Shown here: positions 1 to 17,354 of the stretch, in pieces
Layout of the letters: each line of letters starts with the position of its first letter
How positions within the stretch are numbered: position 1 is the stretch's first letter
DNA from: an uncultured archaeon
GTDB lineage: Archaea; Micrarchaeota; Micrarchaeia; Micrarchaeales; CABMGC01
DNA: 17,354 nucleotides
Assembly (NCBI GenBank): GCA_963787445.1
Contig: CAWBCT010000009.1
Coordinates: forward strand, 1 to 17,354
Direction: 5' to 3'
Position numbers and translations under genes: made by a program
Notes under the pieces: model-generated
The model's database searches: none
The model's input: the letters and a program-made list of their open reading frames with translations, nothing else
What the model was told of the DNA's origin: nothing

Positions 1-2
1 TA

Positions 3-395
3 TTATTTTTCTTTGTTGTATGCATTGAAGTAATGCTTTCCGCGGAGTATGAACTGCTGCTCTATCTTCTTAGGCGAGAAGTACCTATTAGTGAACTCCA
101 CCACCTTCTCCCTGCTGTAGGCCTTGCAGCTGTATACGTCTATGCTTATGAAATTCTTCCTTGATAGGGTGTGAATAACTATCGATGAATCTGCGAGAGG
201 CACCCACCCGCTGAGACCAGCCTTGTCTGGGAAGGATTTCCTGTCGGTCCTGAAGATTGAGGGAGGGGCCTGCTTCTTCATGCCTATGAAGTCGACTAGG
301 TTGTCCAGATAGCTGTAGCAGTGGTCGAGCTCGCCGCACACCTCGGGCTTGCAGTCGTAGCAGTCGAGCAGCAGCTCGTAGCCGAACACCCTCAA
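3..395 (-). CDS. speD: S-adenosylmethionine decarboxylase family (pyruvoyl-dependent) proenzyme
   Basis: G-x-E-LLLD N-terminus, GLSGWVPLADSSIVIHT (family G.S...L.ESH...HT) and ISIDVYSCK with the conserved Cys. The start is uncertain: TTG at 395, with an out-of-frame ATG at 421. Confidence 0.8.
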   Translation of the reverse strand: MRVFGYELLLDCYDCKPEVCGELDHCYSYLDNLVDFIGMKKQAPPSIFRTDRKSFPDKAGLSGWVPLADSSIVIHTLSRKNFISIDVYSCKAYSREKVVEFTNRYFSPKKIEQQFILRGKHYFNAYNKEK

Positions 396-477
396 CTGCT
401 TAGCTTTCTTGGCCGTGCCATCACAGAAAGAATAGAGAGCCCTAAACTTAAATAGCTTGGGCTTTCCTTTCGGATCC

Positions 478-699
478 CTAACCCAATATTTCTATTACCT
501 TGTCCCTGCTAGTGGTGCCTTTTATTATCTTTATGTTCGCCTTTTTCACATTGAAATGTGATGAGAGGGTGGCGATAACGGCAATGTTTGCTCGACCCTC
601 CATCGCTTTTTCTCTAATTTTGAGTTTGTAGCTTACAGGGGTCAGCTTCTCCAGCGTTTCGACTTTGGAATTGGGAACTACTCTTAAGTTTATTATCAT
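478..699 (-). CDS. DUF167/YggU family protein
   Basis: RVVPNS...EKAMEGRANIAVIATLS.HF.V....I.II.G.TSRDK matches the DUF167 pattern; 73 aa. Confidence 0.9.
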   Translation of the reverse strand: MIINLRVVPNSKVETLEKLTPVSYKLKIREKAMEGRANIAVIATLSSHFNVKKANIKIIKGTTSRDKVIEILG

Positions 700-753
700 C
701 TCAGCATCTTGTGTGTAGTTTTACTAAACTTTAAGACCTGCAAGAGATATAAG

Positions 754-1554
754 TCAAGGAAGCATTTTCTCCCTTCGTATCAGCCTGTCTGAGAGCGCAA
801 GGAGCAGCAGCGCCACGAAGAGTATTATGACTGCCTGGCCAAACTCCACGAGTATCGCAGTGCCAAAGGAGAACACGAATGGGATGAAGTATCCGGGTAT
901 CACTCCGACCAACCCGAGGCTCACGGCAAGCGGCTGGTTGCCTCCGGCCCTGTTCTTCTGAAGTACGCTGAACGTCATCATCATTGTTATGATGAAGGCC
1001 ACCGTTGATACTGCTATAAGCGCGCCGATGCCCAGGATAATCAGCATTATTGGCAGGTAGGTTGTTCCGAAGCTCGCAAAGGAGTACAGCAGGTTCAGAG
1101 CCCCGAAAGTCAGCAAATAAGACGCCGCTATCAACAGGGCGGCCTTCAGGTATCGTGCGTATATGTCACGCTGGCTCATCCCCAACGAGATGAGATACTC
1201 AAGGACACCGTTGTTCTTGTCATAAACGAACAAGATCACCATCGGGGTTGTCAGCATCAGCATCGGCATCACGGTGAACGGGACTGCGAGCAAAGGCAGG
1301 CCCAGGCTGCTGTTGGCGCCTGTCTCGGCGCTCATGATCGCGCCGATATTTACGCCATGGCTTGAAGAGTTTGTAGAGTTTGAAGGGTTTGAAAGGTTGG
1401 TGTAAGTGGGGCTGAGAAAAAGGAGCACTCCGAGCCCTATGATTATCGCTATTGCAATGTAGAACTTATTGATGCCCACGGCCCTCTTTGCAGTGACTAT
1501 TATCTGGTTTTCCTTGAGCTCTACGCCCTTGCCCTCATTTTGTGGTTTTGCCAT
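754..1554 (-). CDS. ABC-2 type transporter permease
   Basis: About 6 hydrophobic segments and YDKNNGVLEYLISLG (EkexGtlE-like motif); start overlaps the stop of the upstream ATPase. Confidence 0.8.
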   Translation of the reverse strand: MAKPQNEGKGVELKENQIIVTAKRAVGINKFYIAIAIIIGLGVLLFLSPTYTNLSNPSNSTNSSSHGVNIGAIMSAETGANSSLGLPLLAVPFTVMPMLMLTTPMVILFVYDKNNGVLEYLISLGMSQRDIYARYLKAALLIAASYLLTFGALNLLYSFASFGTTYLPIMLIILGIGALIAVSTVAFIITMMMTFSVLQKNRAGGNQPLAVSLGLVGVIPGYFIPFVFSFGTAILVEFGQAVIILFVALLLLALSDRLIRREKMLP

Positions 1555-2423
1555 TACTTACCACCATCACCAAACAGTTCCTGAAGGGGATTGTCGAGCT
1601 CCTTCATCTCCGTAACAAGTATGCCCTTTTCAATTATCTTTCTTAGGGCAAGGCCTGCCTCTTCTGGCTTCGATACGTTGAGCACGTAGTAGCCGCTGCT
1701 GTCCTTCTTCGCGTCAACGATCTTCGTGATGTCCTTGGAGGCCTTTATCCCCACTCTATAATCCTTCGACCGGACGTTCGCAATCTTGTCAAACAGAGCC
1801 AGCTTGCCATCCTTTATCAGTATAAGATTCATGCCTATGTCAGTGGCTTCGTAAAGATTGTGCGAAGAGTAAAGTACCAGCTTATCTTTGCTAAGTTTCA
1901 GTATGAGATCCCTTATCTCCTTGGAAAGGCCGGGATCGAGGTTTGCAGTCGGTTCGTCAAGCAGGTAGACGTCCCTGTCCTTGAGGAAGACCTTTGCTAT
2001 GGACACCCTCTTCTTCTGGCCCTGCGAAAGATCTATCACCCTCTTGTCCCGCAGTTCATTGAGGCCTAGCAGATCGATTGCCTTCTCCGGATCTCCCCCT
2101 TCCATCCCGGCATAGAACCTAAGTGCATTATATACTGTCATCTCCTCCGGGAGCGCATTGTAGTGCGAGAGGTAGTTTATGTTGCTTCTAAAATCATTTG
2201 AGGATTTTATGTCCTTTCCATCAAGAAGTATCCTGCCCGAGATGGGCTCCAGTATGCCCGCTATTGTCCTGAAAAGCGTAGTCTTTCCCGCACCGTTAGG
2301 TCCAAGTACAACATATACGGATGATTCCTTTGCAGTGAAGCTGATGTTATGCAATACTGGCTTGCCATTGTAGCCCGAGTCAACGTTATCCAATTCAAGC
2401 GTATGCAAAAAGACACCAGACAC
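1554..2423 (-). CDS. ABC transporter ATP-binding protein (CcmA/multidrug exporter-like)
   Basis: Walker A GPNGAGKTT, signature LSQGQKKR, Walker B LLDEPT, H-loop SSH. The real start may be the TTG at 2408. Confidence 0.95.
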   Translation of the reverse strand: MSGVFLHTLELDNVDSGYNGKPVLHNISFTAKESSVYVVLGPNGAGKTTLFRTIAGILEPISGRILLDGKDIKSSNDFRSNINYLSHYNALPEEMTVYNALRFYAGMEGGDPEKAIDLLGLNELRDKRVIDLSQGQKKRVSIAKVFLKDRDVYLLDEPTANLDPGLSKEIRDLILKLSKDKLVLYSSHNLYEATDIGMNLILIKDGKLALFDKIANVRSKDYRVGIKASKDITKIVDAKKDSSGYYVLNVSKPEEAGLALRKIIEKGILVTEMKELDNPLQELFGDGGK

Positions 2424-2505
2424 GATACATGCTCGTTTAAAGCTTTTAGTTGCATGCTAAAGATGCATGTCTGCCAGCCACGTGATAAATGAGGAGAAGG
2501 TGAAC

Positions 2506-2519
2506 AGTGGACTCGGCGG
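2506..2519 (-). repeat. tRNA-Ala-like 3'-end fragment, copy 1 (putative att remnant)
   Basis: AGTGGACTCGGCGG; the minus strand reads CCGC-CGAGTCC-A-C, i.e. T-stem 3' half, acceptor 3' half with U70, and A73. The 11-bp core is shared with 3331 and 5028. Confidence 0.65.
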
Positions 2520-2615
2520 ACTTCCGTATTTGAGTACGTTGTACTAACACGTGCATAAACGGACAAACACCATTAGAATATAGTTTTCATTCGGGGTACC
2601 ACACAAAAATATATT

Positions 2616-2966
2616 CTATCTGCTTTTATAGCCAAAACGTCTTTCATATTCTTTATGAGAGAACCATTCTAATAGAATGGAAACAATTTCTACATCAGAA
2701 CCTTGAAGAGTATAAATCAAACGCCATCCATTTGGCAAGTCGTATTTCCTAAGGTTTGTAATGGAAAACTGTTGTAAGTATGTCTTAGGCCAGAGTTTAC
2801 TTGGTAACTTTATTCCTATTAGAGGATTTTCCTTTAAGTCGTCTATAGCCCTCTGTATGTAAGATGCCAGTTCCTTCTCTTCGAACTTGCCAGACTTTAA
2901 CTCTAAGAAAGAGTTGTAGAGTGATTGGTCTATAAATACAACTTTCTTTATTCTATCACTTTTCAC
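2616..2966 (-). CDS. RelE/ParE-superfamily toxin-like protein
   Basis: 116 aa with AIDDLKENPLIG...LRKYDLPNGWRLIYT...VSILLEWFSHKEY, typical RelE-fold spacing; GTGA overlap with the upstream small gene. Confidence 0.7.
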   Translation of the reverse strand: MKSDRIKKVVFIDQSLYNSFLELKSGKFEEKELASYIQRAIDDLKENPLIGIKLPSKLWPKTYLQQFSITNLRKYDLPNGWRLIYTLQGSDVEIVSILLEWFSHKEYERRFGYKSR

Positions 2967-3247
2967 ACAATCACGCCTTCCTTCCTTATCTTTTCGGCAA
3001 GTTTAGGGTTCCAGAGCCATGTGATTGTTTTATCCTCTTCGACTATTATCTTGCCTGAATATTCTAGATAATCAAGAATGGTTACAAAGGTAGTCCACAT
3101 AACTTTCTTAGGAAGTAGATGCCATATTTGCGTTATTGTCTTGTCGCTTTTATATTTGTACAGTGCCTTTTCCACCATTAATATGGTGTCCAATCGTGGC
3201 AATCTATCTAAGTTCCTAGGTTTGAATTCCATTAGTTCCTTTTCCAC
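2963..3247 (-). CDS. putative antitoxin / small winged-HTH DNA-binding protein
   Basis: 94 aa; TITQIWHLLPKKVMWTTFVTILDYLEYSGKIIVE resembles a wHTH; translationally coupled upstream of the RelE-like gene. Confidence 0.6.
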   Translation of the reverse strand: MEKELMEFKPRNLDRLPRLDTILMVEKALYKYKSDKTITQIWHLLPKKVMWTTFVTILDYLEYSGKIIVEEDKTITWLWNPKLAEKIRKEGVIV

Positions 3248-3255
3248 TTAATCAA

Positions 3256-3287
3256 CTGATAAATATATCAGATGATAAATATATAAA
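3256..3287 (-). promoter_or_regulatory. TATA box plus candidate autoregulatory operator of the TA operon
   Basis: TTTATATA (minus strand, 3280-3287); direct repeat TGATAAATATAT at 3257-3268 and 3273-3284; palindrome CTGATA-AATA-TATCAG at 3256-3271. Confidence 0.55.
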
Positions 3288-3328
3288 CTTTTGGTTGGAG
3301 AGTCAGAACCGCTTCTTCGTAAAATAAA

Positions 3329-3341
3329 AGTGGACTCGGCG
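3329..3341 (-). repeat. tRNA-Ala-like 3'-end fragment, copy 2 (putative att remnant)
   Basis: AGTGGACTCGGCG, identical to 2506-2518; intergenic. Confidence 0.65.
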
Positions 3342-3563
3342 TATGTATCCAACTGAGTTCACTGTACAAGATTATGGTGGCTTTCTTATGTTAATTTAGC
3401 TTTTAACGAAAGATAAAAAGGCCCTGCAGTAAGACGACGGTTATATATTTGATTTCGGTTTAAGAACATTATGGACTATGGGGCAAAGTTTGAACCAAAA
3501 GGTAACAGAATTATTCATGGTACAGGATTACTTAATTAACATGCCTCTAAAGTTCTTATCAGA

Positions 3564-4892
3564 GTGTTGCCGATGGAGAAGAACAAATTAATCAGTATTC
3601 CAGTAGCAACTGCTGTGGGGCTAGGAGCCATAATCGGCGCAGGGATATTCGTACTTAGCGGCACTACTATAGCATTAGCCGGAGCCGATGCCCTCTTCGC
3701 ATTCGTAATAGTAGGGATTGTGGCTCTGATACTTGCCTTTGAGCTTGGCGAACTCAGCTCCCTCATGCCTAATGAAAAGGGTGCATCATATTCGTACACG
3801 TATAAGGCATTCGGAAGCAGGGTGGGGTTCATAACAGGTATATTCAGGTACCTCAGCCTTGCCATTTCTATCTCCGTGGTCTCGTTGGGTTTCGGGGCCT
3901 ATCTTGCGAGCATTCTTGGAATGTCCGTAAACGCCTATTCGATACCATTCGGAATAGTTCTTATAGGGATACTTTCAGCTGTAAACCTTATTGGAGTTAA
4001 AAAAGCCGCCGAAGCTGATTCAGTCCTTGTTGTGATAAAAATATTGATTCTCTTAATATTCATAGGCTTTGCAATCGTGGTTGCGCTGGCGGATCCATCG
4101 TCTACTGCGTCGCATTTCGCTTTCAGTGCATCCACGGGAAGTCTCAGTGACATCTTCGTGGCAGGCATTGCCATAATCTTCGCCTATTCGGGCTTCCAGT
4201 CCATAGCCAGCATATCTGGAAGGATAAAGGGAGGTGCGACTGGGGCTTCAAAAGCCCTAATCGCGGCTGTGTTGATAAGCTTAGTGCTATACGTGCTGGT
4301 AGTGTTTGGATTGCTGCTGCTTCAACCGGCATCGGCATACACGATCTCGGCAGACCCGTTGACTTCCGCATTGGCCGGCACTAGCTCATCCTCATGGCTT
4401 TTGATCCTTGTAGGCATTGGTGCACTGATAGCGACAGCATCAGCAACACTTGCTTCAATATTGACCGCTTCAAGATCAATCTACCAGATGAGTGCTGATG
4501 GTCTGCTCCCAAAGATACTGATGAAATTCAACAAGGATAAGGGCACTGCAGAAAACGGTGTAATCATATCTGCAGTGATAGGGGTTGCCATGTTATTTGC
4601 AGGAAACATATACATCATAGTCTCCATAGTTACTTTCAGCCTAATGTTCGACTATCTGCTTTTAGGATTTGATATCATTCACTTCAGGAGGCAGGGCCGC
4701 AAACCAAGCTTCAGAATGCCATTCTACCCATACCTGCCGGTGATAGGCGTAATAATTCTGATAATCTTCTTCGTAAGCCTGCCAACTGAGGTGCTTGCGG
4801 TAGGCATAGCGATGACCGTAGCCTTAGTGCTATTATACCAGTTTCTCAGTAGGTCAAAGAGCAAGAATGGCAAATTTGTAAAGCTGTTTTGA
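3564..4892 (+). CDS. APC-family amino acid/polyamine permease
   Basis: GAIIGAGIF (TM1 motif), ELSSLMP..GASYSY, FAYSGFQ, SRSIYQMSADGLLPK, FRMPFYP; about 12 TM segments. The start is probably the ATG at 3573. Confidence 0.93.
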   Translation: MLPMEKNKLISIPVATAVGLGAIIGAGIFVLSGTTIALAGADALFAFVIVGIVALILAFELGELSSLMPNEKGASYSYTYKAFGSRVGFITGIFRYLSLAISISVVSLGFGAYLASILGMSVNAYSIPFGIVLIGILSAVNLIGVKKAAEADSVLVVIKILILLIFIGFAIVVALADPSSTASHFAFSASTGSLSDIFVAGIAIIFAYSGFQSIASISGRIKGGATGASKALIAAVLISLVLYVLVVFGLLLLQPASAYTISADPLTSALAGTSSSSWLLILVGIGALIATASATLASILTASRSIYQMSADGLLPKILMKFNKDKGTAENGVIISAVIGVAMLFAGNIYIIVSIVTFSLMFDYLLLGFDIIHFRRQGRKPSFRMPFYPYLPVIGVIILIIFFVSLPTEVLAVGIAMTVALVLLYQFLSRSKSKNGKFVKLF

Positions 4893-5027
4893 TAACCTTT
4901 CTTTGCTTTCCAAAACCTACGTTTAGTTAGGGATTCAGACTTATTTGGTGATGGACGTGGAGTACATTCGATTATTCTAGATTCATGATAACGGTCAGAC
5001 GACACGTGAGCGTGGGTTCGGGTTCAA

Positions 5028-5661: not shown

Positions 5662-6461
5662 ATGCAGTTAAGAAGATTTAAGGAATTAGACCTGGCAAGA
5701 AGCGATTTAAGAGCCAGTATCATCTTACATAAAAACAAGCTTTATCCTCAGTCTATATGGTGTTTGGAGCAGGGAATAGAGAAAACCTTCAAGTTCTTTG
5801 GCAATACGATTGCAGGGTTGGATGATAAATATTACGCCAACAAAGTGAGCCATAAGCCAAGCAAGATTTATCGTGAAGTTTATGACAGACTGGCTAAAGC
5901 TGCCAGAGAAAAGGCCAACATGCAGGCTGGGAGTGACGACCTGAAACAAATTGCAGCTTTATTTAGTCGCCTTCAAGAAGAAAGGGCAGATAGTCTTCAG
6001 AGAAAGGCAGACGATTCTACAGCTATGGATCAGCTCGATATAAGCGATGACAGAAGATTAGGGATATTCATAGAGACGTTCTACAAATTCTTTAAACCTT
6101 TTGAGGAGGGAGAAGGTGGCCCAGCCACCTCAAGGAGATGGACAGATTGCACAAAATCGACATGCAACTTCCCGATAAGGATAGAGAGTATGTAAACGGA
6201 GTTCAGAAGGATACTGCCTTGTGGTACATAGTAAATGAGTTCAATGACTACTCTGAATCCCTGGCAGCATTATCCAGGATTGCAGAAGGACCAGCATCTA
6301 AGAGTAGATATATTAAGAATGGAGAATCACCATTGGATTTGTTCAAGAAAGAGACGCCAGTAGTGAGATATACGCCGAACCTTGTGGCAACAACACTGAA
6401 GATTATATTCGACTTGGAAGAGTTAATGAACGCTTATTATAAGTGGGCAGCATTAAAATGA
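5662..6461 (+). pseudogene. HEPN-domain protein, frameshifted near 6105-6137
   Basis: ORF 5662-6195 begins with the HEPN-like ARSDLRASIILHKNKLYPQSIWCLEQGIEKTFK...VSH. Overlapping ORF 6138-6461 (-1 frame) supplies the C-terminal SRY motif. Confidence 0.6.
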
Positions 6462-7073: not shown

Positions 7074-7724
7074 TCATTCCTCTTTCACAGCGTCTCCCAG
7101 AGCAAGTTTATCAACATTGATTCGGATTGGTCTAAACTCAATCTTACCTTTGTCAATTACTCGTTCTATGGACTTCTGAGTCGGAGTAAGCGATGCACCT
7201 CCAGTCTTTATATCAATGAATGTTATCTTTGTTACATCCCTCTTCAAAAGGCCCTCGAACGCTATGAGGTCTACTGGCTGAGGGCGGATGAAGCAAATAT
7301 CAAAAGGATTGATTCCAGTATATTTTGTTGCGATCATAGGCAACATCTCTCCAAGACGACCGACGTATTGGGATTTCATTGAGCGCAAAGCTCGTGCAGT
7401 GTGTTCATCGTTAACTTTCTTGTTTGCGAGAAATGTGTTACTTTTGAATGATTTGAGCTCGTCTACTTTACGATTGTATTTGTTTGACCAATCCTTATCG
7501 TATGATTCGAGTTTGTACTTCCACTTCTCTCTTTCTTCCTTGACTTTCGTGTTTCCTTTTGCAATTATTTGCGATGCCTTTGTGAGTATATTATCTGGTG
7601 CGTTTTTCAAGTAGAAAGGAGGTGAATCATGTAGGGATATTATCTCTTCGCAGTTTGGGCATAATATATACAGATTTCTTGCCTCTTTCAAACCCTCTAT
7701 GAAGCTATCTGCCGTATTGCCCAT
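7074..7724 (-). CDS. PD-(D/E)XK nuclease related to archaeal Holliday junction resolvase (Endonuc_Holl-like)
   Basis: SMKSQYVGRLGEMLP...NPFDICFIRPQPVDLIAFEGL...ITFIDIKTGGASLTPTQKSI...I.KGKIEF; N-terminal CPNC and a coiled coil. Confidence 0.85.
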   Translation of the reverse strand: MGNTADSFIEGLKEARNLYILCPNCEEIISLHDSPPFYLKNAPDNILTKASQIIAKGNTKVKEEREKWKYKLESYDKDWSNKYNRKVDELKSFKSNTFLANKKVNDEHTARALRSMKSQYVGRLGEMLPMIATKYTGINPFDICFIRPQPVDLIAFEGLLKRDVTKITFIDIKTGGASLTPTQKSIERVIDKGKIEFRPIRINVDKLALGDAVKEE

Positions 7725-8422: not shown

Positions 8423-9028
8423 ATGGCAACAAACCAGAAGAAGTCGCACTTGTGGATAGTCTTGTTCATATTTGCGATAGCCTTTGGATTGTTTGCACCG
8501 CTTCTTGGTAGAGAGATAACAGAATATACAAAGAAGAAGGACTCCGCTGACTTTGAACATGACGAGTACGTGAACGCGATAGTGAATTCGCTGGTATTAG
8601 GATTGATACTTTATGTTGGACTCTTTGTGTTCGGTATTATTTGTTTTGGGTTCGTTGAGCTCGTGTATTTCATAATGTTTGTAGCCTTCTGGATGGCAAC
8701 CAAGAACATAGCGATATCAAAGACAAAGAAGAAGGCGGTTGAGGAGGACAGCACGCACTCTGGGAGGGTTGCGATCTTAGTTGTGTCATCCTTGTCCGTG
8801 CTGGTTCCAATACCTGCTTTGATGGCAGTACTCGGCATGGGCATCTTAATAAAAAAGGATTTGAAGAGGTTTAGTACAGCCCAGTTCGTTCTAACTTGCC
8901 TGATTAGCTTCATGCTGGCGATACTGCTTGATGTCTCATTATTTATAGGGTATAGTCTTATCCTGCTCCTGGCTTACATAGCTATAAGCATCATATTCTT
9001 TATTTGGAAGCGAGAGATTAGAAAGTAA
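8423..9028 (+). CDS. hypothetical multi-pass membrane protein
   Basis: 201 aa, about 6 hydrophobic segments, GGAG SD-like sequence upstream. Confidence 0.7.
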   Translation: MATNQKKSHLWIVLFIFAIAFGLFAPLLGREITEYTKKKDSADFEHDEYVNAIVNSLVLGLILYVGLFVFGIICFGFVELVYFIMFVAFWMATKNIAISKTKKKAVEEDSTHSGRVAILVVSSLSVLVPIPALMAVLGMGILIKKDLKRFSTAQFVLTCLISFMLAILLDVSLFIGYSLILLLAYIAISIIFFIWKREIRK

Positions 9029-9031
9029 GAA

Positions 9032-9745
9032 TTAGGCCTTCGCTTCCAGCCTATCAAGCATCTCCAACTGGCCCGCAGTCTTGAGCTGCTTCTGAATATA
9101 GACGTAGTGCTCGAGCATGTCTTTCCTGGCCCAGCCCATGTAGGCCTGGATGAGCTCGGGAGGGTAGCCCTTGTTTATGAGCATGTTATAGGCCCTGAGA
9201 TGGCGCAGGTTATGCGGAGTGATGCCGTGATCCTCGTAGATGTTCTTATCGTCGGTCATGTTGGCTCTGAAGTTATGCTTGAGCACCTGCGAGAGGTTAG
9301 CTGCTGCCTGATATCCTCCGAGCTTCGCGAACTTCTTGCCCAGGCCACGCTCATCCTGGACTCCGCGCATGATGTCATCCCATCTCTTAGCGTCGTAGCC
9401 TTCCAGGGGCAGGTTTGCCACGCTCTTTCCCCTCTCTCCGAGCACCTTAAAGCCCCTGGATGATCCTCTGTGGTAATCCTCGAGGTGAGCCTTCATCTTG
9501 CTCCTGGAGGGCAGCTCCACGCCACACTCAAGGCACTTGAAGGAGGGGTTTATGAAGTGCTTTTCGTTTATCTTCTCGATGTAGGCGATCCTACGTCCCT
9601 TGTGCACCTTCTCATAAGCTATTATCCTATCGGAGTGCAGGGCCTCGCCGAGCCTGGCCCCTGCAAGGTAGAGGAACAGGAAGAGCTTGGTGAGGATAGT
9701 AGGGTAAGGATAAGACCTTATCTTGCCCTGCTTGTTGGCCTCCAT
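9032..9745 (-). CDS. tyrosine recombinase, catalytic domain only, with inserted C2H2 zinc finger
   Basis: GARLGE (R31), NEK (candidate K62), HNLRH (H178/R181), MGW (W205), HYVY (Y214); C71-x2-C-x12-H-x4-H92. The frame stays open upstream to about 9929. Confidence 0.85.
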   Translation of the reverse strand: MEANKQGKIRSYPYPTILTKLFLFLYLAGARLGEALHSDRIIAYEKVHKGRRIAYIEKINEKHFINPSFKCLECGVELPSRSKMKAHLEDYHRGSSRGFKVLGERGKSVANLPLEGYDAKRWDDIMRGVQDERGLGKKFAKLGGYQAAANLSQVLKHNFRANMTDDKNIYEDHGITPHNLRHLRAYNMLINKGYPPELIQAYMGWARKDMLEHYVYIQKQLKTAGQLEMLDRLEAKA

Positions 9746-9881
9746 ACGCCTGAATCCTGCAACGGCTATGCCCCATATCTCCTTGCTGACGTCGTCAGAG
9801 CCTGCATAGATAGAGGTTATTGTCGTGAGTTTGAGCCTTTGTCTGTCCTCGTTTAAACACCTATATAAACTATAAATATGG

Positions 9882-9947
9882 CCTCTAAAACAGCCTGTTT
9901 TGTCGTCGTTTTGTCGTCGTAAAACAGTCTAACTAGACTTTTAGAGG
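9882..9947. repeat. repeat cluster upstream of the recombinase
   Basis: Tandem GTTTTGTCGTC x2 (9897-9918); inverted CCTCTAAAA (9882-9890) / TTTTAGAGG (9939-9947); TAAAACAG x2; AGTCTA-AC-TAGACT palindrome. Confidence 0.8.
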
Positions 9948-9982
9948 AAGAATGATTTTGTGTGTACAGAAAGTCATTCTTC
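9947..9982. repeat. 13-10-13 inverted repeat (candidate recombination site or hairpin)
   Basis: GAAGAATGATTTT-GTGTGTACAG-AAAGTCATTCTTC; 12 of 13 arm positions are complementary. Confidence 0.8.
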
Positions 9983-10013
9983 AAAACCGCCTACTAGCGC
10001 CGCCATTATCACC

Positions 10014-10419
10014 TTAGCCTATTGGGACCACTATCCCGTCCCACTCTTCATCCTCACTGTCTTTGGCCTTGTCTTTCTTCAGTCTGTACTTCCTGCAAGG
10101 CTTTAGGCTGGGCCACTATTATTCTTGTCCATCTGAAGGTCCATGAACACAATCTCAGAGATAGCACCCTCACTTCTACACGGCCGCTGGGGTATCCTTC
10201 GTATACTCCATGAGAGCGGTTAGGCCTCGCATTCTTCGTTACCTGGTTGTATGCCTTGCCTGTGGAAGTCCTCTGAGGCTCTGAGAATGCATAGCAGTCA
10301 TCCCTGAGCTTAAAGGACGCTGAAACCCTCGGGAAACCCTCTGAAGGTTCTCTGGGGAATTTTTCAGAGAAAAGGCTGGGAATCACCTCTGAGCGATTCT
10401 GCTGCATCTCTCTCGTCAA
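10014..10419 (-). pseudogene. hypothetical gene, probably frameshifted
   Basis: ORF 10054-10419 overlaps the upstream stop (TTGA). A protein-like tail CRKYRLKKDKAKDSEDEEWDGIVVPIG* in another frame ends at 10014. Confidence 0.35.
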
Positions 10420-10628
10420 ACTGTTTCTCTTCCCTGATAAGGGGCTGTTAGACCCTCGGGGCTCGGTGGGCCGATGTCTCGAGCTTCAGAGCCATCTGGC
10501 TTCTCTGAGACCTTCAGAGGTACAACTTGCTCTGAGTCAAGAAGGAATATCACATCGATGGCCTTATCATCTTCGGAGGCCTGAACGCAGAGACAACGAT
10601 CGCTGCCTATTATCTTAACAATCCTCAT
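10416..10628 (-). CDS. hypothetical protein (possibly degraded)
   Basis: 70-aa ATG ORF co-oriented with the element's leftward operon. Confidence 0.4.
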   Translation of the reverse strand: MRIVKIIGSDRCLCVQASEDDKAIDVIFLLDSEQVVPLKVSEKPDGSEARDIGPPSPEGLTAPYQGRETV

Positions 10629-10773
10629 AAATCATTAGCCAGTGATCTCACCGACCGATAGACCCTGTGCTGATCACCAGATAGAGCATTGTCTCTTGGA
10701 GTCGTCTTGACATTTCACGCTCGGCCTTTATTTGAGGTCGCATAGTCTCTCGCCTTAAGTAGCCTTCTCGACC

Positions 10774-11366
10774 TCAGCTTTGATGAAATCCTGGCTTCAG
10801 TTCCATATTCCATTGTCCTTCATAAAAAGTCCTGCATACCATCATCCCATAAACATCATACGAACTCTTTACCGCATGCCAGATAAAGGAAACCGTCCTG
10901 AAGGCCTCAAGCTGCCCTCTTCCTTCATCGCCGCAATACTCCTGGTATGCCGCGTCATCTGGCACGTGCTCATCGCGGAGCTCCTGAATCAGCGCAGACT
11001 TGGGAAGGTATCTATGGCGCTGAGCAGGGCCCTTATCTTGCCCTGGATGGGGAGCTCGGGCGTGGGAGGCTGGGTTATCCTGATGCAGACGTTTCGATTA
11101 AGGGCCAGGGTTATCGGGCAGGCTGGCCCTGGCGCGGTAATGCCCGATTGAGAAGCTCACAGTATTGCCGTTCAGTTCCACGTCATCCATGTTATCCCTC
11201 TTTGAGTCCTTGAGCAGCACCCATGCCGCAATCCCAGAGCCCGCGCCTACCGAAGCCACGCACAGCCGCGCATAATGGCGCTTGTGGCGCTCAAGGCGGC
11301 CCCTGTAGCAGCAAGCGTAAGGCCTGCCGAAAGGGCTGCTATTGCGAGTTTCTTGGAGGTGTTCAT
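10774..11366 (-). pseudogene. multiply frameshifted secreted/membrane protein gene
   Basis: MNTSKKLAIAALSAGLTLAATGAAL (signal/TM-like), then consecutive protein-like blocks in changing frames: GIAAWVLLKDSKRDNMDDVELNGNTVSFSIGHY / NVCIRITQPPTPELPIQGKIRALLSAIDTF / KSALIQELRDEHVPDDAAYQEY. Confidence 0.4.
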
Positions 11367-11437
11367 GGAGTTTTGAACCTCTGAAGTTTGCCCGCTTTGG
11401 CTACTTTGGGCAGTATCTTTAGCCTCTCCTGTTGTTT

Positions 11438-13050
11438 TCATATCGCTACACGAAGGGTTAGTGGAAGTGCCCAAAGTGCCCATCTGAACTTGCTTACCCT
11501 CCTGTTTGCCGCTGTCCTGCTTTGTCCACTTGTATCTGTTTCGCGTTGATTTTGTCTCCTCTTGACATCCAGGCGTATGCCAGAGAAGACTCTGCCCTTG
11601 AATCTTAGTAGCATCTTACCGAAAGACATGCGGGCCCCTCCCTTCAATCTGCCAATCAAGCCAATCGAACAAGTCAGCAAAGTCGCTGTCCTTATTCTCA
11701 AACTCATCGATTATTTGCTGCTTGGGAAGGTACGACTCTGGCCACTTTGAGTAGCAACGCTCAAAGACACCTTCATGCTCTTTGTTTCGGTATCACCCCC
11801 AACATCGTTTTGCAAGTCGTTCGACATTGGTGTCCCGAGACCCGCGTTCTCCATTATGCCTCCGACTACTCTCGCCCACTCTGGGAAGCTTGCGAATGGT
11901 TGGCTGCCAGGCTTCATGCCTTTCTCCACCCAATCTCTGATAAGAGCGTAGATCAGCGCTACAGTATCTCGCTTCTTTTCTCGGCTACCCACTGATGCAG
12001 GTTCGGATTCTCAAACTTTCTGGCGTTAGGATCACAGCGAAGAATAGGTTGATGAAAATGCTCCTCATGCTCGTCAGGAGTGTAGGTGATACCGACATTA
12101 GCGCTTCATTGATATCTCGAGCACGTTGGGATATGTTGCCATTCTATTACTTCCAAGAATCCTGTCGGTAATGACCTCGCTCGTCAAGATAGCCTCAAGC
12201 GCAGCACAATTCAGATACCCTTTATTATTGGCGAGTGCATTCGTAGCATCCGGATGATTACTGCAAGTGGCCAGTATCTTCTTTCTGAACTCTTCGTTGT
12301 CGCATTTCTGCTCGCTCGATATGGCAGGATCTTCTATGGCATTGCCCTCGTATACGAATGCCCGGTATGCCTGCGCAGTAGTCTTTTCCTGCTCGCGCTT
12401 GGTTTGCTGTATAAAATCTAACGGGTGTCCTGGCTGTTTCATGGTTGTATAACTCTCGGCAGTACGGCGTGATCAAGTCCGCAATGGCGTTAGCCCTATC
12501 TTGCTGGCCAACAAAGCAGAACTCCTTGTATATCTCGTTTATCAGAGTTTTGCCATCCTGCAAAGACATATCGAGCCTTACGTCGGGTGCATCGGCTGGC
12601 GTCCAGAATCTCAACTTCTCATCATAGCCTTTCTTTTGGAAACTCAAGTTTCCCATTCTTGAGTAGTGGTTTAGGAACTGTGTAGATTCGTTCTATTATT
12701 GGCAGCTTCGCGATGAATTGGTCGGAGCTCTTAAGGATAGCTGATGCAGAACTTCCGCTAATGCTTTTCTTGATAAAGCCGATTTCCTCGCCGTCTCTTG
12801 AAAGGATTTTTCCAATTATAAAATCGTTCTCTATCATTGTGATGAACGCGTCTTATCTACCGCTCCAGCCCAAGATTTTTGCGTCGTCTCCCTTCTTTCT
12901 TGTTGTTTATGGCTCCATATTTAGTCTGACTATCTCACGTCAGCCAGCGGCGAGGATGGTGTATGGACGTAAGTGGTAGTATTCGCCTATCGACACCGCA
13001 ACGTCGCCTATCGGATTGCCGTCTTTAGGAACCTCTATTCTTGGTTTCAT
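11438..13050 (-). pseudogene. phage/plasmid primase-associated P-loop ATPase (putative replicative helicase), fragmented
   Basis: ATG at 13050; collinear fragments give GYDEK...EFCF...DRANAIADLITPYCR...TPVRFYTANQARAGKD...NEEFRKKILA...LEAILTSEVITDRILGSN...LIRDWVEKG..P...FASFPEWARVVGGIME...FGKMLLRFKGRVFSG, a motif order I recognise from viral primase-linked ATPases. Confidence 0.7.
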
Positions 13051-13063
13051 GTGTTTATAAAGT

Positions 13064-13261
13064 TCATTCAGTCGGTCTGCCTTCACGGGAAACTGCTTGA
13101 TCATCTCGCCAATAACCGCATAATCTCTTGATAAGGCTTCGCGAGAATTGATTCTCAGACAGAAGTGTATCGATATCCTCTCCCTTTTTAAGGGCGTCTC
13201 GAATGTGATTTATGCGCATCACATCCTCGAGTGAACCAGATCGGCCATCATAGCACCTCAA
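13064..13261 (-). CDS. small hypothetical protein
   Basis: 65 aa, overlapping the upstream stop; ends 13 nt before the ATG of the ATPase pseudogene. Confidence 0.4.
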   Translation of the reverse strand: MRCYDGRSGSLEDVMRINHIRDALKKGEDIDTLLSENQFSRSLIKRLCGYWRDDQAVSREGRPTE

Positions 13262-13440
13262 TCCGAACCACCGTAGAAATAGCGATCGCCACTTCTGGGT
13301 ATGGGCTCGGTTGCTTGATGAACAACAAGCCGTCCTGGACGGCAGTTAAGTGCCTTCCCTGCTACGCGGATAAGTAGAGGCCTTATCATTGTAGAGCACT
13401 TTGAGCTTTTTGCCCATATACTCGTTCCATTTTGTTCCAT
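13258..13440 (-). CDS. small hypothetical protein (possibly frameshifted)
   Basis: ATG ORF in the same operon, GAGGAG upstream. Confidence 0.4.
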   Translation of the reverse strand: MEQNGTSIWAKSSKCSTMIRPLLIRVAGKALNCRPGRLVVHQATEPIPRSGDRYFYGGSD

Positions 13441-13458
13441 TTTCCACTTTATCTCCTC

Positions 13459-13692
13459 TTAATCATTCATAATGCTGTTTAGTGCGTAGGCTATGCTTCT
13501 GTCAGAGCTCACGCGGCCCTTGAGCCGTGCAAGGATAGAGGCCTTCTTGATGAAGAGTTGTCGTTGCAGTTTCCTAAGCGAGTCGGCGTAGCGCTGGTCT
13601 GTAAGCTCGGATAGGAACACACGGTCGCGCTCGATTAGCCTGTAAAGTTCACCGCACATCTGCTCGAGTTCTGCCTGGAGTGCCATGATCAT
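13459..13692 (-). CDS. small helical/coiled-coil hypothetical protein
   Basis: Strong GGTGAGG SD; ATGA overlap with the upstream ORF. Confidence 0.65.
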   Translation of the reverse strand: MIMALQAELEQMCGELYRLIERDRVFLSELTDQRYADSLRKLQRQLFIKKASILARLKGRVSSDRSIAYALNSIMND

Positions 13693-13826
13693 GTCCTCAC
13701 CATTTGAACTTGCACTTTAACCTTTAATTTCTCCAGGAATGCCGAGATGAGAGGATCATCCGCGAACTCCTCGGGATGCGTTATGGCCCAGCGCAGCGCC
13801 TTCTTTTCTTCTGGTAATAGGGGCAT
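13689..13826 (-). CDS. 45-aa hypothetical protein (not in ORF track)
   Basis: MPLLPEEKKALRWAITHPEEFADDPLISAFLEKLKVKVQVQMVRT*; starts 3 nt after the RHH stop and its TGA overlaps the next ATG. Confidence 0.6.
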   Translation of the reverse strand: MPLLPEEKKALRWAITHPEEFADDPLISAFLEKLKVKVQVQMVRT

Positions 13827-13829
13827 TGT

Positions 13830-13996
13830 TTAACCTTTTTTCCTGGTGGTAATCTCTGCCGCCTTTTGAATGAGGAATTTTCTGCATAAGGCGGATATCG
13901 AGGAGAATCCCTCTGCTCGAAGCGATCTATCGCTTGGAGCGTTTCCTTATCAAGTGTCAGAGGCATCGTCTTCTCAATCATTTGCTGTTTTGTCAT
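13830..13996 (-). pseudogene. ribbon-helix-helix (CopG-like) regulator with a 1-nt frameshift near 13920
   Basis: MTKQQMIEKTMPLTLDKETLQAIDR / RAEGFSSISALCRKFLIQKAAEITTRKKG*; the joined sequence gives beta strand, helix, G-x-x-S turn, helix; 167 nt, one base short of a full frame. Confidence 0.65.
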
Positions 13997-16078: not shown

Positions 16079-17260
16079 TTACTTCATCTCTTTGTATATC
16101 TCCTCGAAGAGAGATTCATCCTTTATCGCCTTTGCCAGGACCCGCTTTACGAGTTCCTTGTTCTTTAGGATGTCGTTTATGCCCTTTATCTCAATGAGAG
16201 CGTTGCAACGCGCACAGTGATAGGCACCCAGGATGTTCGGGAACTTGCACTGAGGGCATTGTTTTGTTTGCAGCTTGGTCTCGTGTTCCTCAACAACCAT
16301 GCCATCCATCTTGAGCAGCGCATTATCAACAGTCTTGCCAGATAGGTGCACGTACTTGGCCGTCATGTTGCTCTTCTTGCTCCATCCCATAATCTCACGG
16401 AGCACTCCCTCTGGGATCTCGGATGCCATTCGCGAGGCTGCCGAGTGCCTAAACAGATGCAAGTGCACACGCTTGTTTATCCCAGCCCTCTTTGTTATGT
16501 CCTTAAGGTTCAGCCTGAGAGCGTCGTATTCGTGGGGTTCGTTATGCTCAAAATCCCGCCAGAGAAAGTCATTCTGCGAAAGCGCCTTGATCTTGTCCTG
16601 ATTCATGTAATCAGCCATGTACCCAGCAGAGAAAACTATGGGAATTCTACGCGGTTTTGTCTTACTAACGTTTACGATAATGTAAGGAGGATTATCGAGT
16701 AGGTTTACGTCCTTCTTTCTCATGCCCAGCAGCTCCGCAGCTCTGAGGCCACGCTCGAACAGTAGGCTAAGCTGTGCGCGGTCTCGCTTGTTCTTGCACG
16801 CGTCAAGCAGCTTGAGGATATCATCCTCACTTATCAAGTCAGTTGGGAGTATCTGATCCTGCTCCTTTAACGTTGTTTTGAGCCAGCGCACGGCCTCGGG
16901 AAAGAACTCGTCGTTTCCATAGCAGTGCTTGTAATAGGCCTTTACAACAACCCTAACCTGGCGCTTTGTTTCCTGGGCCATATTCAGGCTCTCTATCTTA
17001 GCGAAGGCACGCTCCACGTCCTTCTTTGTGGCCGTTGGCATCTCCACGCTGCCTATTGCATCAGCGTACTTCTCAAAACAGTAAATGTGCTTGAGCAGAG
17101 TGTTAGGCTTGCTGCCTCTGCTCCTCAAGTAAGAAACGATATCATCGAAGGCCTCCTTGTTAGTCTGAGGATAAGAATTGTTGGCATGAATCCTCTTGAG
17201 CAGCATGTCTATCTGCTGAGTTGGTATCCTGTCAAGTGTCTGCATCTCTGCCTTTTGCAT
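16079..17260 (-). CDS. tyrosine integrase with N-terminal core-binding domain and C-terminal zinc ribbon
   Basis: RGLRAAEL, VSKTKPR, HLHLFRH, MGW, KYVH catalytic motifs; CPQC...CARC. Confidence 0.95.
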   Translation of the reverse strand: MQKAEMQTLDRIPTQQIDMLLKRIHANNSYPQTNKEAFDDIVSYLRSRGSKPNTLLKHIYCFEKYADAIGSVEMPTATKKDVERAFAKIESLNMAQETKRQVRVVVKAYYKHCYGNDEFFPEAVRWLKTTLKEQDQILPTDLISEDDILKLLDACKNKRDRAQLSLLFERGLRAAELLGMRKKDVNLLDNPPYIIVNVSKTKPRRIPIVFSAGYMADYMNQDKIKALSQNDFLWRDFEHNEPHEYDALRLNLKDITKRAGINKRVHLHLFRHSAASRMASEIPEGVLREIMGWSKKSNMTAKYVHLSGKTVDNALLKMDGMVVEEHETKLQTKQCPQCKFPNILGAYHCARCNALIEIKGINDILKNKELVKRVLAKAIKDESLFEEIYKEMK

Positions 17261-17298: not shown

Positions 17299-17354
17299 AT
17301 AAACCGAAGCCCTAAGCGAAATGCAGCAAAAAGCTTGTCGTCGTAATCAAGATT

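Follow-up and report, generated by a model that had tools for sequence, protein, structure and literature searches.

An apparently 5'-damaged gene for a probable single-domain tyrosine recombinase with a C2H2-type finger in its catalytic domain, from a putative mobile element of Micrarchaeota

What kind of enzyme is encoded by a gene that carries the catalytic residues of a tyrosine recombinase, seems to have no room for the usual N-terminal DNA-binding half and holds a zinc-finger motif within its catalytic domain? The gene lies on the minus strand of contig CAWBCT010000009.1 of assembly GCA_963787445.1, from an uncultured archaeon of the Micrarchaeales. The window analysed here is that entire contig of 17,354 nucleotides, contig C9 of an assembly of 1.05 Mb in 19 contigs, with a completeness of 82% and an estimated contamination of 5.4%. 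We read the gene, with a probability of roughly 0.6, as a 5'-damaged copy of a site-specific tyrosine recombinase that belongs to an undescribed single-domain family of mobile elements of Micrarchaeota (DPANN). The gene and its key residues are placed as follows.

9032 to 9745, minus strand: catalytic domain of a small tyrosine recombinase, the open reading frame (ORF) as called, 237 amino acids (aa) (sequence, PF00589, AlphaFold model)
9653-9655, 9560-9562 and 9212-9214, minus strand: catalytic codons R31, K62 and H178
9203-9205, 9131-9133 and 9104-9106, minus strand: catalytic codons R181, W205 and Y214
9470 to 9541, minus strand: C2H2 zinc-finger motif FKCLECGVELPSRSKMKAHLEDYH, residues 69-92, putative ligands C71, C74, H87 and H92 (sequence, AlphaFold, relatives)

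The original prediction had seen a full R-K-HxxR-W-Y set in this frame, and this is confirmed: R31, K62, H178-x-x-R181, W205 and Y214 are kept across 72 aligned relatives, and the ordered set that marks a tyrosine recombinase, up to the tyrosine nucleophile, is complete in the window protein. In Pfam, residues 167-219 give the sole match to PF00589 (Phage_integrase; E 2e-8, 34.6 bits vs a cut-off of 27.1 bits). The NCBIfam model of XerA (NF040815) scores 19 bits vs its 220-bit cut-off, and a sequence search of the Protein Data Bank (PDB) with the window protein returned insignificant finger matches only.

A word-indexed search found one relative, P0002 (251 aa, 53% identity over 224 columns), while an exhaustive phmmer run against 1.84 billion representatives raised the number of matches to 88 at E<=1e-3, of which 44 reach 1e-10 and 3 reach 1e-30. 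From the resulting set of 89 proteins, the 78 of 190-360 aa were aligned, leaving out 5 fragments shorter than 190 aa and 6 long proteins; of the latter, P0043, P0053 and P0076 at least are multi-finger proteins matched through the finger segment. The 78 representatives are 196-354 aa long (median 274.5 aa), with a median of 61.5 residues ahead of the first catalytic arginine (Arg I). A reduced alignment of 72 rows, from which the partial P0016 and P0024 and the HxxR-histidine-less P0068, P0081, P0088 and P0089 were dropped, has K62, H182, W205 and Y214 invariant and R31, E34, H63, H178, R181 and R184 conserved at 90% or more; PF00589 is detected at E<=0.1 in 65 of these 72 rows. In Ca. Micrarchaeum acidiphilum ARMAN-2 a member is annotated as 'hypothetical protein', and others are titled 'site-specific integrase' or 'integrase'; the named ones come from Micrarchaeota. 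P0004, a full-length finger-bearing member, has no NCBIfam match, and the clusters that it finds in the Atlas are unnamed or generically named, 231-260 aa long and mostly archaeal, with one viral cluster in which 16% of members have a zinc ribbon. Judged by sequence, these proteins constitute a previously undescribed family of putative single-domain tyrosine recombinases of about 250-290 aa. The proposal that the gene represents a distinct subfamily, and not a truncated ordinary integrase, was thus well founded, given the shortness of the 78 representatives and the structural match of P0004, which covers only residues 102-283 of XerA.

Structure prediction with AlphaFold2 and the 72-row alignment gave a confident model of the window protein (predicted local distance difference test, pLDDT, 92.0; predicted template modelling score, pTM, 0.86), and the full-length P0004 was modelled equally well (pLDDT 93.2, pTM 0.87). 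When compared by VIA-align with 48,161 PDB representatives, both models match XerA best: the window model aligns to 5hxy_A with Z 11.5 and a root-mean-square deviation (rmsd) of 3.5 over 159 residues, model residues 1-232 falling on chain residues 111-283, and P0004 aligns with Z 11.8, residues 6-263 falling on 102-283. XerH, Cre, IntI, TelA, lambda Int and Tn1549 Int come next (Z 8.8-11.5), all through the catalytic domain only. At Z>=8 there are 19 chains of recombinases, topoisomerases IB or protelomerases for the P0004 model and 15 for the window model (P0001); Foldseek against the PDB also finds recombinases, at E about 0.01 only.

The usual grip of a tyrosine recombinase on DNA is a clamp formed by a core-binding and a catalytic domain, and the Xer-like layout includes an N-terminal core-binding helical domain of about 100 aa, which is not found in this family. 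In P0004 a short strand and a single helix (15-32) are all that precedes the catalytic domain, and since the match to XerA is confined to residues 102-283, the models indicate that the family lacks a core-binding domain. The earlier claim that there is no room for such a domain therefore holds in part. It had been judged on an ORF that is truncated at its 5' end, as family homology runs upstream of M1, and in this respect it does not stand, but the domain is absent even from the intact family with its median of 61.5 residues ahead of Arg I.

The zinc-finger motif begins 7 residues past K62, in agreement with its predicted location at 9470-9541 after the candidate catalytic lysine, and has the form F-x-C-x2-C-x12-H-x4-H. 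C71 and C74 are the sole cysteines of the window protein, and the spacing F69-x-C71-x2-C74-x3-L78-x5-M84-x2-H87-x4-H92 fits the classical C2H2 consensus (aromatic/hydrophobic-x-C-x2-4-C-x3-hydrophobic-x5-hydrophobic-x2-H-x3-5-H). In the model, strand 51-71, which carries K62, leads into a turn with C71 and C74, followed by strand 77-78, helix 81-91 with H87, then H92 and the return strand 99-113, and in this arrangement the finger forms the tip of an elongated beta2-beta3 hairpin. The beta-beta-alpha fold of the finger itself is predicted with a block pLDDT of 94-96. The models of both the window protein and P0004 thus bear out the expectation that the finger sits in the beta2-beta3 hairpin region, where it would cap a greatly lengthened hairpin just past the catalytic lysine. 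By sequence, the best matches to fingers in the PDB have E 0.29-7.6; long multi-finger proteins were matched in the whole-library phmmer search via query residues 58-112 (P0043 with E 1.5e-11, which is a sum over hits, P0053 with 3.4e-9 and P0076 with 5.4e-6). With a C2H2-type motif at the same alignment position in 15 of the 78 representatives, the putative finger is more than a chance pattern.

How general is this arrangement? Counting the hairpin segment between the equivalents of H63 and P113 in all 78 rows, we found that 43 have at most 17 residues and three have 23-28, while segments of 30 residues or more hold a C2H2-type finger in 15 rows and some other insert, of net charge +1 to +8, in 17. 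A net positive charge, of +3 to +8 in the finger segments, is the rule for fingers and alternative inserts with few exceptions. Twelve of the 15 fingers have strict spacing (regular expression C-x2-C ... [H/C]-x2-5-[H/C], with the matched ligands all histidines) and three have variant spacing. In a maximum-likelihood tree calculated without the insert columns (a quick search, with support from the Shimodaira-Hasegawa-like approximate likelihood ratio test, SH-aLRT, only), finger-bearing rows fall in three places: a clade of 13 (support 93), in which C96, C99 and H112 are invariant and H118 is conserved at 90% or more; P0001, sister to the fingerless P0002 (support 100); and P0004. These three placements imply at least three gains or losses of the finger. 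The flanks of the finger are alike in P0001 and P0004 (KHF-I/V-NP-S/T-F/Y-K/R-CL-E/K-C), which suggests common descent with losses of the finger elsewhere. As P0002 does without it, the finger is dispensable for the fold. The idea that the finger serves as the family's substitute for a DNA-binding domain has therefore to be given up, since 63 of 78 representatives have neither finger nor core-binding domain. From its distribution in the alignment, the finger is best described as a facultative module, one of several alternatives at the hairpin tip.

The window copy of the gene appears to be damaged at its 5' end. Among the public sequencing runs listed as containing this DNA there was none of RNA, while three DNA runs contain small shares of it as contigs, and we compared these contigs over 8900-10300; a 196-nt contig from one of these, run X3 of a different study, covers 9777-9942 with five other letters and omits base 9797 and one base at 9830. 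The features upstream of the called ORF are these.

9746 to 9796, minus strand: same-frame coding continuation DDVSKEIWGIAVAGFRR, homologous to the family N-terminus, without a start codon (alignment, tblastn)
9797, minus strand: extra, frame-shifting base, where tblastn matches in two frames meet; the X3 contig omits the same base
9798 to 9860, minus strand: family N-terminal motif KAQTHDNNLYLCRL in the other frame, the motif at 9839-9798 (tblastn; compare the N-terminus of P0002)
9862 to 9879, minus strand: two TATA-like boxes, TTTATATA and ATATTTATAG, upstream of the gene (read from the sequence)

Upstream of M1 the frame stays open, and DDVSKEIWGIAVAGFRR extends the family alignment. The N-termini of six relatives, searched by tblastn, match 'DVSKEIW...' from 9793 in the same frame as the ORF, and for four of the six, KAQTHDNNLYLCRL or part of it is found in a different frame within 9839-9798. 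Motif and ORF thus lie in two frames that meet at 9797, which points to one extra base at this position. There is no ATG, GTG or TTG in the window at the site equivalent to the start of P0002; the sole canonical start in the frame of the N-terminal motif is GTG 9858-9860, directly after the TTTATATA box. The two boxes may represent an archaeal promoter. Either the window copy is defective, as is probable, or the assembly is wrong at base 9797.

The island in which the gene is found also shows signs of decay, and it holds a second, larger enzyme.

16079 to 17260, minus strand: second, larger tyrosine integrase, 393 aa (PF00589 E 7.2e-23; 28% identical to an integrase next to tRNA-Phe in the related genome G177)

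The window ends 94 bases past the start of this larger gene, and the two integrases are about 6.3 kb apart; the whole genome has four PF00589 genes, none of which reaches the XerA cut-off. Between the two, at 10000-13800, some 3.8 kb hold nothing but short broken frames on the minus strand. Pfam gave no match for the fragments of 10000-13800; among the PHROGs, a family of unknown function with 1229 positions is matched at its positions 1068-1133 by the fragment at 11714-12010 (E 4.2e-6), and one more match is marginal (E 0.0098). The region seems to be what is left of one large element gene, or of several.

In the 401 genomes of the phylum that we searched with a profile, full-length matches (E<=2e-50) occur in seven, including that of the window, all from the same family or order, besides an N-terminal fragment in G071; the other matches are mostly C-terminal, to ordinary integrases of 343-472 aa. 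Three of the six other genomes have the finger (G177, G171 and G184) and three do not (G021, G265 and G141). In these relatives the small recombinase gene comes after ORFs for giant proteins of 900-1950 aa that resemble surface proteins, in three cases with small membrane ORFs in between, and the contigs also encode D5-type primase-helicases (DUF5906, D5_N, Pox_D5), a Cas4-like nuclease, Hjc and an AAA ATPase. The G265 element adjoins host uvrA, uvrB and uvrC. The G177 element has a larger integrase as well, of 403 aa and with a zinc ribbon at its C-terminus (locus L054, 9665-10876); it lies 39 bp from tRNA-Phe, after which host genes follow, and the finger-bearing small enzyme is found about 6 kb inside the element. 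On loci L052 and L053 and on the 27-kb G265 contig, all of them incomplete contigs, there is no second PF00589 gene. Scans of viral contigs with two alignments confirmed no relative, and neither did a scan of genome contigs with a 5-row alignment.

The DNA just upstream of the gene is rich in repeats.

9882 to 9947, no strand: repeat-rich region with the inverted repeat CCTCTAAAA/TTTTAGAGG (9882-9890 / 9939-9947), an AAAACAG-C-CTGTTTT palindrome and the tandem iteron GTTTTGTCGTC in two copies (9897-9918)
9947 to 9982, no strand: 36-bp imperfect palindrome with 17-nt arms, 88% complementary
17335 to 17346, plus strand: TTGTCGTCGTAA, direct repeat of 9911-9922, possible attachment (att) pair bounding a 7.4-kb segment

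The loose end of the X3 contig continues with sequence similar to the 36-bp palindrome; in four other elements the surroundings of the gene gave no comparable palindrome. TTGTCGTCGTAA has exactly two copies in the window, both on the plus strand (the mean over shuffled sequences is 0.06, and two copies were reached in 1 of 200 shuffles). The pair could be att sites around the 7.4-kb segment that holds the large integrase, and in that case the small recombinase gene would lie just outside the segment. A 25-nt repeat at 9968-9992 / 16563-16587 was rejected as a candidate, as its second copy lies inside the large integrase gene and its 13-nt exact core is, by our own estimate, about what chance gives in 17 kb.

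The 10-mer TTTGTCGTCG, a GTC-repeat iteron that lies beside the gene in the window, recurs in related elements: three copies within 82 bases in that of G177, one copy followed by a palindrome in that of G171, and one copy 10 bases from the 3' end of tRNA-Glu in the G071 remnant. Four metagenome contigs of the G171 lineage have it 868-869 bases past the stop codon, and two more have one-base or larger variants. It is missing from two fingerless elements with long flanks (L052 and L055) and from the finger-bearing L062. Genome-wide, TTTGTCGTCG is no commoner than a reversed control, and only its clusters and its repeated placement carry weight. Near the gene, then, four finger-bearing lineages have it, one finger-bearing lineage does not and two fingerless ones do not; as these lineages are few and related, we regard the association of finger and TTTGTCGTCG as a lead only. 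The recurrence of this iteron leaves room for the idea in the original prediction that the neighbouring palindrome may be a substrate, though it ties no such site to this enzyme. At L054 (G177:C1) 6007-6200, the three iterons are followed by several GTGTAAC(A) repeats, all within the low-complexity tail of an 872-aa ORF without a Pfam match. Possibly the tail is not translated and the region serves as an origin or an att-type site.

We propose that a member of this family would cut DNA and rejoin it through a 3'-phosphotyrosine at the residue equivalent to Y214, and would in this way integrate, excise or resolve its element. The tip of the hairpin would be a swappable accessory module for DNA contact, occupied by a C2H2 finger, a basic insert or nothing, and in finger-bearing members the finger would add sequence-specific contacts beside the crossover site. 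The window copy, having apparently lost its frame near the 5' end within a decaying element, may no longer work. Several observations weigh against this proposal. The putative finger stays below every Pfam C2H2 cut-off (13.3 bits vs 25.2 for PF00096, zf-C2H2; E 0.013-0.13 for the other C2H2 models), and the closest homologue, P0002, has no cysteine or histidine at the finger position. The HxxR histidine is absent from 4 of the 78 rows, namely P0068, P0081, P0088 and P0089. The 13 finger-bearing metagenome loci were collected with a query from the finger clade and are a biased count. The support that the X3 contig gives to the frameshift is weak, as it is one contig with a depth of 2.9 and has a second one-base gap at 9830. 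The large integrase at the tRNA-Phe boundary in G177, with the same pair of enzymes in the window, suggests that integration may be the job of the larger enzyme.

This last observation leads to a doubtful though serious alternative, in which the small enzyme is a second, non-integrative recombinase, such as a multimer resolvase or an invertase, and the larger one integrates the element at a tRNA gene. It is consistent with the position of the small enzyme about 6 kb inside the G177 element and about 6.3 kb from its larger partner in the window, with the overlap of the small gene with the stop or start of membrane-protein ORFs in the relatives, in mid-operon and not at the end of an element, and with its orientation relative to the large integrase and the iteron, which differs between the window and G177. 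Against it, L052, L053 and the G265 contig have no other PF00589 gene and the G265 element adjoins host uvrABC, though a second integrase could lie past the ends of these incomplete contigs; nor were inverted repeats flanking an invertible segment found. A separate matter is whether the window gene does anything at all, whatever the family does. We see an even chance that it has become a functionless pseudogene within a decaying island: the extra base at 9797, the missing ATG, GTG or TTG where P0002 starts, the broken frames at 10000-13800 with the PHROG-matching fragment, and the fragments of family genes elsewhere (G000:C10 and G071) all fit with this, but the 237 codons still open have lost neither a catalytic residue nor any of the four finger ligands, a protein consisting of the catalytic domain only could be made from an internal ATG at 9745, and an assembly error could explain the frameshift. 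As to the finger, we consider it unlikely that it is a structural or protein-contact module, which would stabilise the long hairpin or mediate synapsis of protomers and read no DNA. Its dispensability in close relatives, its replacement elsewhere by unrelated inserts, the variation between members at the usual base-contacting helix positions and the lack of a GTCGTCG motif in the 7.1 kb of the finger-bearing L062 would suit such a role; the basic charge of nearly all fingers (+3 to +8) and alternative inserts argues for contact with DNA, as do the insertions of the IntTn916 type, described as touching and shaping DNA at this very site (PMC8138268). A more specific version of our proposal, in which the finger reads the GTC-repeat iterons TTTGTCGTCG by the crossover site and stands in for core- and arm-binding domains, with swaps of the tip module retargeting the elements, seems improbable on the present evidence.

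The family can be compared with several known systems. XerA (5hxy, 4a8e) is the best structural match (Z 11.5/11.8, rmsd 3.3-3.5, 159-167 aligned residues) and has the same set of catalytic residues, with Trp or His at the fifth position and a tyrosine nucleophile. However, only its residues 102-283 are matched, it has the core-binding domain that the family appears to lack and it has no hairpin insert; the family is also sporadic, with strong matches in 7 of 401 genomes, in contrast to the near-universal presence in the lineage expected of XerA. According to the text of the survey by Smyshlyaev et al. (PMC8138268), simple tyrosine recombinases consist of core-binding and catalytic domains, insertions in the catalytic domain are known in integron integrases and SNJ2-type enzymes, and enzymes of the IntTn916 subgroup have, between strands 2 and 3, an inserted beta segment that is reported to shape the DNA substrate. 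The IntTn916/Tn1549 enzymes thus resemble the family in having an insertion between beta2 and beta3 (Tn1549 Int 6emy_A, Z 8.8-9.6), but theirs is a beta segment without metal ligands, arm- and core-binding domains are present and the enzymes are bacterial. IntI (2a3v, Z 9.5-10.1) is likewise a simple recombinase defined by a catalytic-domain insertion that alters substrate recognition (PMC8138268), but the insertion is helical, at another position and without a zinc finger, and the core-binding domain is kept. The SSV1 integrase (3vcf) is a recombinase of an archaeal mobile element with the same catalytic fold but a weaker match (Z 6.6-7.3, catalytic domain). SSV-type integrases are described as having a long N-terminal domain with attP inside the gene (PMC7253208), while the N-terminal part of the window gene is contiguous apart from one base and so not split in this manner. 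Small viral recombinases such as Sputnik virophage V10 (226 aa) are similar in size and give Foldseek matches in a viral library, at E 9e-4 to 1e-2 only and with 10-15% identity; no finger was noted in these matches. A full-text literature search, which included integrases of DPANN and Micrarchaeota, found no description of a tyrosine recombinase with a zinc-finger insertion, and 'zinc' is absent from the main text of the PMC8138268 survey.

Further observations concern relatives and remnants of the recombinase. Loci L011 and L021 (in G147 and G103) hold other small recombinases of about 222-230 aa with weak profile matches (E 7e-12 to 7e-8), which adjoin virus-like membrane and structural ORFs; G103 has three identical copies 26 kb apart. 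In the window genome itself, 26 residues of a family gene survive at L002 (G000:C10:20086-23178), with 68% identity across residues 177-207; judging from their translations, the ORFs around them seem distinctly richer in GC, and the contig may be chimeric or foreign. The fragment in G071 (L010, G071:C6, 1480-1797) is the N-terminal part of a family gene that ends in a degenerate finger (CLEC..., with a shifted histidine), and it is found close to tRNA-Glu and to an S-adenosylmethionine (AdoMet) decarboxylase gene resembling one at 3-395 of the window. L052 encodes at 11508-11858 a stand-alone 116-aa protein with a C2H2 motif, in an element whose recombinase is fingerless, and L055, the G265 element, encodes at 13422-13985 a protein with an IS200-like Y1 transposase domain and a Cys/His-rich tail. 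A strongly conserved hairpin-like segment (GCGCAG...CTGCGC) follows a small membrane ORF at L053 9500-9545 and occupies the corresponding position in L063-L072; inside it, or just past it, two metagenome contigs break off. An apparent att junction in L063 was rejected: the sequence there is intergenic and divergent, and the same Cas4-like gene comes next.

Elsewhere in the window, an ORF for a ParE-like toxin (PF05016, E 6.6e-5) at 2616-3247 has a small upstream partner ORF, and a 216-aa protein encoded at 7074-7724 belongs to the family 'endonuclease related to archaeal Holliday junction resolvase' (PF10107, E 1e-17). All 28 relatives of the AdoMet decarboxylase are from DPANN or archaeal metagenome-assembled genomes, most of them 'Candidatus Micrarchaeota'. 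Bases 1-5026 are 100% identical to the last 5026 bases of contig C1 (G000:C1:14959-19982), an end-to-end overlap that reflects redundancy of the assembly. ARAGORN found no tRNA gene in the window, and Rfam found no RNA gene either in the whole window at gathering scores or in 9700-10700 at E<=1. The notion that the contig ends inside a tRNA gene was not supported: a pattern made of the contig end and a guessed T-loop matched 1 of 91 genomes of the family, with two mismatches and no tRNA at that place, and was no better than its reversed control, which gave three matches. Nor did the cassette array suggested in the original prediction materialise, as a repeat search of the window gave only short matches in two copies, and neither a repeat family nor a tandem array.

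What distinguishes the family, if our reading of it as one of site-specific recombinases of Micrarchaeota elements is right, is that it would make do with a catalytic domain and one helix, while the hairpin that bears the catalytic lysine is decorated with interchangeable modules. One of these modules, the C2H2 finger, is a fold common in eukaryotes and uncommon in prokaryotes. If the finger does read DNA, it would represent a natural case of zinc-finger retargeting of a tyrosine recombinase, and such retargeting is relevant to recombinase engineering. The family would then also mark a poorly known group of mobile elements of Micrarchaeota.

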